Source: an uncultured Planctomycetia bacterium (GTDB taxonomy: Bacteria; Omnitrophota; Gorgyraeia; Tantalellales; Tantalellaceae). Taken from it: 61,273 nt of DNA. The first letter of the stretch is position 1; every line of letters starts with the position of its first letter. The stretch spans positions 3,708 to 64,980 of the forward strand of contig CAZNEE010000007.1 in assembly GCA_964572255.1 (NCBI GenBank), read 5' to 3'. A model generated the notes under the pieces. It was not told the DNA's origin and ran no database searches. It saw nothing but the letters and a program-made list of their open reading frames with translations. This document shows, one piece after another, positions 37,190 to 37,337 of the stretch. Both the position numbers and the translations under genes were made by a program.

Positions 37190-37337
37190 AAGATATTCGA
37201 ATTGTTTCTCGCAGGAACGTCAAATTTTCCCAGCGAGAAAATTTGACTCAGAAGTTCCCTCGCTCGTCCTCAATTTAACACAAGACACCGTGCTCGCTCG
37301 GTCACTTATGTCCTGCTCAAACCAATTCGAATATCTT
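37190..37337. repeat. 148-bp structured repeat, family 2 copy C
   Basis: Perfect 15-bp terminal inverted repeat AAGATATTCGAATTG, internal 11-bp hairpin. 127/148 identical to 42672-42819. Confidence 0.9.

Follow-up and report, generated by a model that had tools for sequence, protein, structure and literature searches.

Two copies of a structured repeat lie within a 61,273-nucleotide stretch of Omnitrophota DNA (contig CAZNEE010000007.1 of assembly GCA_964572255.1), hereafter the window, whose open reading frames (ORFs) are almost only tightly packed minus-strand housekeeping genes. The contig derives from JGI metagenome 3300017987, and homologues of QueC place its host in Candidatus Omnitrophota. 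Copy A sits between queC and the radical-SAM gene queE, copy B between a thioredoxin gene (trx) and a PfkB/rfaE1-type kinase gene (pfkB), and the 61-kb window holds no other full copy. Both read on the minus strand, called the sense strand below. From the outside in, each has a closing stem (P1) and a stem P2 that leads into a three-way junction bearing P3, the P4 hairpin and the P5 hairpin; two conserved motifs, m1 and m2, flank P4. The features of the two copies are given here, with bit scores from the covariance model R1 described further on.

37190..37337, minus strand: copy A, whole element, 148 nt, between the queC stop codon (37346) and the queE start (37170); R1 score 161 bits
37319..37337, minus strand: copy A, 5' arm of P1 (AAGAUAUUCGAAUUGGUUU), partner 37190-37208; the P1 sequence is variable, and pairing is kept in 13/13 family members
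37190..37208, minus strand: copy A, 3' arm of P1 (GAAACAAUUCGAAUAUCUU), partner of 37319-37337
37311..37318, minus strand: copy A, tandem GA step and 5' strand of P2 (GA-GCAGGA); P2 partner 37211-37216, with GA opposite the GA at 37209-37210
37300..37307, minus strand: copy A, 5' strand of P3 (AAGU-GA-CC), partner 37252-37259 (GG-GA-ACUU), with internal tandem G.A
37287..37299, minus strand: copy A, m1, conserved unpaired motif (GAGCGAGCACGGU)
37265..37287, minus strand: copy A, P4, variable hairpin whose closing pair is the invariant U.G
37257..37265, minus strand: copy A, m2, conserved motif (GAGCGAGGG)
37219..37247, minus strand: copy A, P5 hairpin with an 11-bp stem; its loop region, CUCGCUGGG (37229-37237), complements the AGCGAG in m1 and m2
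37172..37385, minus strand: hypervariable patch around copy A, taking in some 40 nt from the native 3' coding end of queC
42672..42819, minus strand: copy B, whole element, 148 nt, between thioredoxin (43065-43385) and the PfkB/rfaE1-type kinase (41579-42586); R1 score 164 bits
42801..42819, minus strand: copy B, 5' arm of P1, partner 42672-42690
42769..42781, minus strand: copy B, m1
42747..42769, minus strand: copy B, P4 hairpin, with C-G replacing copy A's U.G
42739..42747, minus strand: copy B, m2
42701..42729, minus strand: copy B, P5 hairpin, with loop CUCGCUGGG at 42711-42719

Compensatory change and empty alleles

Copies A and B align without gaps over their 148 nt at 86% identity, and 14 of the 21 substitutions between them make up seven compensatory pairs. 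At 5/144, 9/140, 11/138, 13/136, 27/122, 36/52 and 39/49 both partners are altered and the pair is Watson-Crick in A and in B. An earlier sequence-only reading of this DNA had described a gap-free 148-bp repeat with 21 substitutions, 14 of them reciprocal; its coordinates and counts were reproduced exactly, and all seven of its compensatory pairs hold. When 21 random substitutions were thrown onto the 44-pair structure in 100,000 simulations, compensatory pairs arose by chance with a mean of 0.28 and a maximum of 4, and seven were reached in 0/100,000. Substitutions 18 and 94 yield G.U on the minus strand only, again as claimed, the latter turning a U.G of copy A into a C-G of copy B within P4. 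A tandem GA/GA step adjoins the closing stem, and CGAGCGAG occurs twice alongside a single complementary loop, CTCGCTGG; both features are present as that reading had stated them. Either strand of both copies folds with z-scores of -6.3 to -7.8 relative to shuffles, and the minus-strand fold is 10-14 kcal/mol more stable than the plus-strand fold. The longest exact run common to A and B is at most 27 nt.

Both copies are insertions into operon spacers. In three Omnitrophota relatives (L073, L074 and L076; QueC about 69% identical) the window's 20-kb gene order is kept, and the queC-queE spacer measures 2, 0 and 6 nt, respectively, versus 175 nt in the window, while the trx-pfkB spacer measures 14, 42 and 16 nt versus 478 nt. 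R1 has no match at these loci. Since the spacers are nearly zero-length and R1-negative in three syntenic relatives, the additional sequence of A and B must have been inserted. Empty alleles, which the sequence-only reading had named as a check on its proposal, are thus present in all three.

The remainder of the trx-rfaE1 spacer beside copy B is filled exactly by a 249-nt segment (42819-43067) with 30-nt imperfect inverted repeats at its bounds. It looks like a second, different insertion, since the syntenic relatives have 14-42 nt there. A sequence similar to the inner arm of this segment (UUUACUGUUUUGAC, sense strand) stands just upstream of copy A (GAUACAGUUUGAGAC). About 10 nt past the 3' end of copy B, and upstream of PfkB/rfaE1, lies a sigma-70-like near-consensus promoter (42632-42661, minus strand; TTGACA, 18 nt, TAAAAT with TG), which is a consensus match only. 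The other long stretches of this compact window lacking an ORF of at least 90 amino acids are 54479-55370, 58652-59556 and 1-2357.

A fold kept on one strand across distant hosts

A metagenome scan with one pattern returned four diverged members (L069-L072), which together with L067 and the window copies gave the seven sequences used to build R1. Across all fetched loci, R1 recognises 13 full members including A and B (49-164 bits), 11 of them beyond the window, and a further four degenerate members, all in Patescibacteria mnmA (L084, L085, L081 and L080). It also exposed a second, inverted and diverged copy beside the first in L072. An initial pattern, run on a genome collection, gave 63 loci, mostly chance matches in GC-rich genomes, of which only L013, L042, L051 and L056 are real under the covariance model. 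A profile of the antisense-frame peptide had one match among 5.8 billion proteins, P0241, through which L086 was located; a search of 1.84 billion representative proteins with the antisense-frame peptide returned low-complexity noise only. The hosts are Omnitrophota (window and L067), a Planctomycetia-labelled metagenome-assembled genome (MAG), binchicken_co334_60, with two copies (L042 and L056), unassigned metagenome contigs (L069-L072 and L086) and Saccharibacteria-labelled MAGs (L013 and L051), and their GC content ranges from 32 to 58%. Elements are about 145-170 nt long and form two subfamilies: subfamily I has m1 GAGCGAG with m2 CGAGCGAGGG, and subfamily II has m1 GAGCGGG with m2 AGAGCGAGGA. 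Short Logan and ENA contigs L002 and L003 break inside elements; the idea that these assembly breaks signal high copy number was dropped, as population polymorphism fits better and exact runs between A and B are so short.

This family of small structured elements is previously uncatalogued and absent from Rfam 15. Against the 4227 families of that release, the whole window gave 0 matches at the gathering threshold, copy A with its flanks gave at E<=10 just two unrelated snoRNA matches far under threshold, and at ten loci holding other members no match overlapped an element at E<=1. The sequence-only claim of a structured element without an Rfam match therefore survives even permissive E-values. 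Pattern scans and BLAST of viral contigs and of phage and plasmid records found no match to the element, the core sequence words have no occurrence in the searchable literature, and the window contains no tRNA or tmRNA. Signal recognition particle RNA, 6S, Y RNA, hammerhead, twister-sister, attC and retron identities were each rejected for want of defining motifs or an Rfam match; for the retron non-coding RNA (msr-msd), a closing stem is present, but the flanking genes include no reverse transcriptase.

In the family as a whole, P1 has 15-19 bp or more, reaching about 25-35 bp in L071 and L072, and its sequence is lineage-specific. A symmetric tandem G.A/A.G step lies between P1 and P2, which is GCAGGG/CCCUGC in most members, ACAAAAG/CUUUUGU in L013 and nearly absent in L051. 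P3 contains internal G.A pairs, and its outer pairs covary (AAGU/ACUU, AAAUC/GAUUU, GAUGUUU/AAACAUC, GGC/GCC). Within it, an asymmetric internal loop places m1 (CGAGCGRGCAnGGU) and m2 (GAGCGAGG) either side of the variable-length P4, capped by tetraloops (GAAA, CUUG) in L056 and L051. P5 is a covarying hairpin of 11-13 bp with loop CUCGCUGG. The core motifs are near-invariant across phyla, while P1 is variable.

Pair statistics were computed on a 13-sequence alignment (A7) with 49 modelled pairs, against 500 shuffles and controls in which the partners were slid. Paired cells amount to 87.8%, versus 65.5% in the shuffles and 36-51% with slid partners, and the covariation score is 0.632, versus 0.218 and 0.10-0.17, respectively. 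Both sides change in 43 of the 49 modelled pairs and in four of the six P4 pairs; the observed values were matched by 0/500 shuffles on any measure. One fold on one strand is maintained by many compensatory changes across the family, and the structure kept by covariation that had been proposed from the window is upheld in 13 sequences from distant hosts.

The strand can be told from features that a palindrome in DNA would not keep. The U.G closing P4 is found in 13/13 members. Mismatches within helices on the sense strand are A.G (39) and G.G (13) versus C.U (2) and C.C (0), G.U pairs number 43 versus 18 A.C, and the minimum free energy (MFE) is lower on the sense strand in 15 of 16 elements. 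Since correction between palindrome arms at the DNA level would erase the invariant U.G, the mismatch asymmetry and the MFE bias, the selected form is, judging from these sequence patterns, a single strand (RNA or ssDNA) of sense polarity, that is, the window minus strand. The minus-strand function put forward earlier agrees with all three.

The same patterns bear on the proposition that no structure is selected, and that templated repair or template switching (quasipalindrome correction), or gene conversion between copies, would keep the arms complementary and so mimic compensatory change. In four of the Patescibacteria mnmA copies (L080, L081, L084 and L085) the GAGCGAG motifs have indeed mutated into mutually complementary arms, internal loops have become helices and the strand bias of G.U is lost (11 sense versus 9 antisense). 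In the canonical members, however, non-Watson-Crick features are kept rather than corrected, including the tandem G.A steps in P1/P2 and P3; conservation extends to the unpaired motifs; the types of mismatch differ strongly between the strands; and a branched fold with local hairpins persists over the full range of host GC. The conserved non-Watson-Crick features weaken the gene-conversion alternative, and we consider the proposition as a whole very improbable.

The P5 loop is complementary to AGCGAG in m1 and m2 in 12 of 13 members, G.U-compatible variants (L067, subfamily II) included, and unconstrained RNAalifold favours an m2-loop helix. A pseudoknot between the P5 loop and m1/m2, or an alternative conformer, is plausible from these complementarities; because both partners are nearly invariant, the pairing is without true covariation.

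The window contains another repeat, Family 1, an 87-nt hairpin at 33412-33498 (minus strand) and 2222-2308 (plus strand), the copies being 89% complementary. Family 1 aligns to R1 via P1 and P2 only (CAGGG/CCCUG), has the AAGA...TCTT ends in common with copies A and B, and carries 23 nt in place of the 97-nt core. It may be a relative that shares the shell or has been internally deleted, which suggests that cores can be exchanged within an outer shell. In that case, mobility may be determined by the shell, and the conserved core may have a function of its own.

Bacterial self-cleaving ribozymes are typically multi-copy and scattered intergenically, and the family could be viewed in that light. 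The three-way-junction core would then be a functional RNA, either a self-cleaving ribozyme or one that binds a ligand, tRNA or protein, carried as cargo in a hairpin shell that explains its spread, with the P5 loop docking on GAGCGAG to form a compact pseudoknot. Such a function would account for a core that is near-invariant across phyla within a variable P1, for a loop complementarity maintained through G.U-compatible changes, and for the m2-loop helix that RNAalifold finds repeatedly. Tandem G.A steps are a typical feature of folded RNAs, as is an invariant U.G, and the P4 tetraloops, the different core in the Family 1 shell, the intergenic scatter of multiple copies and the presence of queC/queE, queH and mnmA among the neighbours point the same way. 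Nevertheless, no Rfam ribozyme or riboswitch matches, the pseudoknot partners do not covary, the loop motif is absent in L072:1476-1645, the canonical copies in L013 and L051 lie antisense within a coding gene, where sense transcription is not expected, and other Patescibacteria mnmA copies persist after losing the motifs. We regard a functional-RNA cargo as the main alternative, albeit an unlikely one. It is likewise doubtful that the core (the P3 tandem G.A, two GAGCGAG, the P4 U.G and a docking loop CUCGCUGG) represents a new class of functional RNA in interchangeable shells, acting as a ribozyme or as an interactor of tRNA wobble modification (queuosine, MnmA).

Genomic contexts and insertions in mnmA

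Outside mnmA, the element is found in sense orientation between co-directional genes in A, B and L067, in L071 upstream of ybaB, in L072a, where cdhD and the RACo gene flank it, and in L086 upstream of queH; the first five lie 14-85 nt upstream of the next start codon. L056, L069 and L070 face a convergent downstream gene, and L042 follows a divergent gene. L072b is antisense (L072:1476-1645, minus strand), between cdhD and the sense copy (L072:1715-1882, plus strand), so that 70 nt separate the two, which stand head to head with cdhD on one side and the RACo gene on the other; L072b is diverged (71 bits), with loop CACGGUG in place of CUCGCUG. The flanking genes comprise queC/queE, trx/pfkB, cdhD/RACo, ybaB, gltX, parB, hypD and opp. 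Contexts this varied speak against a single cis function. A riboswitch or cis-regulatory leader was rejected, as the genes that follow are unrelated to one another, three copies point at convergent genes, a further one is antisense and another six sit within coding sequence; queuosine genes and mnmA nonetheless show a partial enrichment. The "transcribed orientation" assigned to the element in the sequence-only reading likewise fails to hold in general, given L072b and the Patescibacteria copies antisense inside mnmA. GC skew as a proxy for the replication strand is uninformative at the short loci; in the window, genes are encoded on the sense strand, which is also the one rich in G.

It should also be noted that genes concerned with the tRNA anticodon or wobble base recur as neighbours: queC|queE (37170-38014), queH (L086:1-180), mnmA (L013) and gltX (convergent, L070:973-2265). 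This was noticed post hoc, and may reflect chance or a functional link.

The queC/queE site is filled in a second strain, L067, which is 98.6% identical to the window over 8.6 kb and about 99.4% identical outside one patch. Its element is much more diverged and belongs to the other subfamily. Differences between the two strains are concentrated here, with 76 of 130 inside 37100-37399, and the patch extends from the last ten or so codons of queC to just short of the queE start. Between 37172-37385 and L067:1540-1770, about 30% of positions differ, covering the element and about 40 nt of the queC 3' end. Because the QueC C-terminus is native (AGLEDPLL/AGIKDPLL), the patch is most plausibly a short tract, centred on the element, that was imported by recombination from a diverged lineage with an element at the same site.

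These contexts are pertinent to the possibility of a cis-acting mRNA module useful to the host, in which the 25-35 bp P1-P2 helix would be cut by RNase III or would block exonucleases, and the cistrons on either side would thereby be uncoupled in stability or translation, as described for ERIC and Correia repeats. The position of A, B, L067, L071 and L072a, shortly before the next start codon between co-directional genes, is what such a module would require; P1 and P2 together form a long, nearly perfect helix, and an element is kept at the queC-queE site as two diverged alleles. However, a plain hairpin would be enough for this role, which leaves the core and its cross-phylum conservation without account. 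Copies between convergent genes (L056, L069, L070), in antisense (L072b) and inside mnmA do not fit, and the syntenic relatives manage without the element. A module of this kind is, in our assessment, distinctly unlikely.

In Patescibacteria, the element has entered a protein-coding gene. L013 and L051 carry it within mnmA, antisense, in frame and stop-free, immediately after the codons for GHYV, and both keep all canonical features. The L013 gene (L013:3164-4420) encodes a MnmA 45-53 amino acids longer at this site than the insert-free homologue P0161. Of the 120 closest MnmA homologues, which are all Patescibacteria-type, about 40% have inserts of 55-70 amino acids at the GHYV site, and the insert peptides are the translated antisense strand of the element (e.g. 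..FLPARKF.., ..APAA..DQA.R.SETF..). Among these inserts, R1 has antisense matches in L084, L085, L081 and, weakly, L080. Altogether, six Patescibacteria loci have an antisense element at one mnmA site. The copies in L080, L081, L084 and L085, with their altered motifs, look like relaxed, domesticated relics. The open antisense frame was rejected as evidence of coding by the element itself, since covarying stems encode different peptides and P4 hairpins of different length shift the frame.

The MnmA loop after GHYV is an insertion hot spot. Other homologues have low-complexity inserts of 25-45 amino acids there (e.g. IKIQNSKFKIQNDNSKFKI), which look like other AT-rich palindromes. The 108-residue insert of P0185/L082 MnmA was rejected as a family member, as it is not recognisably of this family.

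The nature of the element

Taken together, our results favour the view that A and B are copies of a selfish, non-autonomous, non-coding palindromic mobile element whose family spans several phyla, to which we assign a probability of roughly 0.5. This view rests on lineage-specific insertions into near-zero spacers, on several copies per genome, on the inverted pair in L072, on unrelated neighbours and on the in-frame, one-orientation occupation of a conserved gene. Filled and empty sites coexist among relatives, and more than one copy is seen in the window (2), in L072 (2) and in binchicken_co334_60 (2). By analogy with Rickettsia palindromic elements (RPE), ERIC or MITEs (miniature inverted-repeat transposable elements), the element would survive as selfish DNA wherever genes stay unbroken, and in sense orientation it would be co-transcribed with its operon. 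A trans-acting factor may recognise the conserved single-strand fold to move or maintain it. Recognition would presumably proceed via shape and a few unpaired bases, as for integron attC or REP hairpins, with the acting form being ssDNA or the element's own transcript.

Several points weigh against this view. No target-site duplication or fixed target sequence was found, inspection revealed no direct repeat at the P1 boundaries of A, B, L067 or the Family 1 copies, and no terminal sequence is conserved across lineages; hence the element does not look like a classical MITE of the DDE type. In copies with annotated flanks, no transposase, nuclease, HUH or RAYT (REP-associated tyrosine transposase) gene or reverse transcriptase lies beside any of them, in genomes that are incomplete and, for the window's host, cover 61 kb. 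In the sequence covered, copy number is low: the 61-kb window has two copies, and one MAG another two. A core conserved across phyla within a lineage-specific P1 fits an RNA function of the core at least as well as it does a mobility signal. Queuosine genes (queC|queE, queH) adjoin 2 of about 9 independent loci outside the Candidate Phyla Radiation (CPR), and the CPR copies sit in mnmA, a neighbourhood suggestive of a functional link as opposed to random insertion. Lastly, alignment A7, on which the pair counts are based, was fitted to the model, and the census is small (13 + 4 sequences) and partly ascertained by two collection patterns that fixed some of the conserved motifs.

The ends of the element are unusual for a MITE: the P1 termini pair, and they differ between copies through compensatory changes. 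Short ends are common only within a lineage, as in AAGA...TCTT (window) and UAGCGGGUG...CACCCGCUA (L071, L072 and L086), and L042 and L056, from one MAG, have no ends in common. The missing duplication would fit a palindrome-associated transposable element derived from IS200/IS605 (HUH Y1), a kind that inserts 3' of a fixed tetra- or pentanucleotide; the 5' flanks of the present element are T-rich (GTTTG, TGCTT, TGATT) but not fixed.

RPE, reportedly the subject of a study by Ogata et al. in 2000, offer a comparison by behaviour rather than by sequence or homology. The family shares with them a stop-free read-through (L013 mnmA) in a fixed antisense orientation, along with spacer copies. RPE, which PMC1166351 and PMC1779305 mention, are likewise palindromic non-coding repeats of about 100-150 bp with no transposase of their own and with their mobilisation unexplained, and they occupy both spacers and conserved protein genes, in frame, in one orientation and frame, adding a tolerated peptide. 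RPE are known from Rickettsia and close relatives only, whereas the new family occurs in Omnitrophota, a Planctomycetia-labelled MAG and Patescibacteria. Unlike RPE, it has a branched three-way junction, conserved unpaired motifs and strand-specific non-Watson-Crick pairs.

ERIC/IRU and the Correia (NEMIS) repeats of Neisseria, reviewed in PMC3184786 and PMC10969869, resemble the new element as imperfect palindromes of 100-160 bp in transcribed operon spacers that form long RNA hairpins and possible RNase targets. Those repeats have sequence-conserved ends, TA duplications (Correia) and a genus- or family-restricted range (PMC3184786, PMC10969869). In the new family, by contrast, it is the interior that is conserved; the ends vary and covary, and duplications were not found.

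A conserved single-strand fold with variable stems, few conserved unpaired bases and strand specificity is shared with attC and with the REP/REPIN sequences recognised by RAYT proteins. Consensus inspection of either strand at the base of P1/P2 revealed no R''/R' core sites of attC (RYYYAAC/GTTRRRY), and the neighbours are housekeeping genes with no integrase or cassette array. For REP/REPIN, there is no GTAG-type head or conserved terminal tetranucleotide, the element is branched and measures 145-170 nt, as against hairpins of 20-40 nt in inverted doublets, and no RAYT was seen in the incomplete genomes. Small self-cleaving ribozymes (hammerhead, twister, twister-sister, pistol, hatchet, HDV-like) are similar in their size of about 150 nt, in a P1 that is free to vary in sequence, in the conserved nucleotides of junction and loop, in a possible contact between loop and internal loop, and in scattered intergenic copies. 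They differ in that the element has no Rfam 15 match at E<=1-10 and no cleavage site that can be named.

The element is found in lineages of ultra-small, host-dependent bacteria (Omnitrophota, Patescibacteria), about whose mobile and non-coding repertoire little is known, and the common insert of 55-70 amino acids in Patescibacteria MnmA has now been traced to it. Within the window, the element accounts for the largest spacers of an otherwise very compact operon region. A covariance model and 13-17 seed sequences are at hand for a full census and for wet-lab work. An interior that is conserved within a lineage-dependent closing stem is the reverse of an ordinary MITE, and would point either to a trans-acting factor that recognises shape or to an activity of the core. 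On the reading of A and B as selfish mobile elements, the family would extend the "selfish DNA in protein-coding genes" of Rickettsia to other phyla, with a far more elaborate, strand-specific fold.

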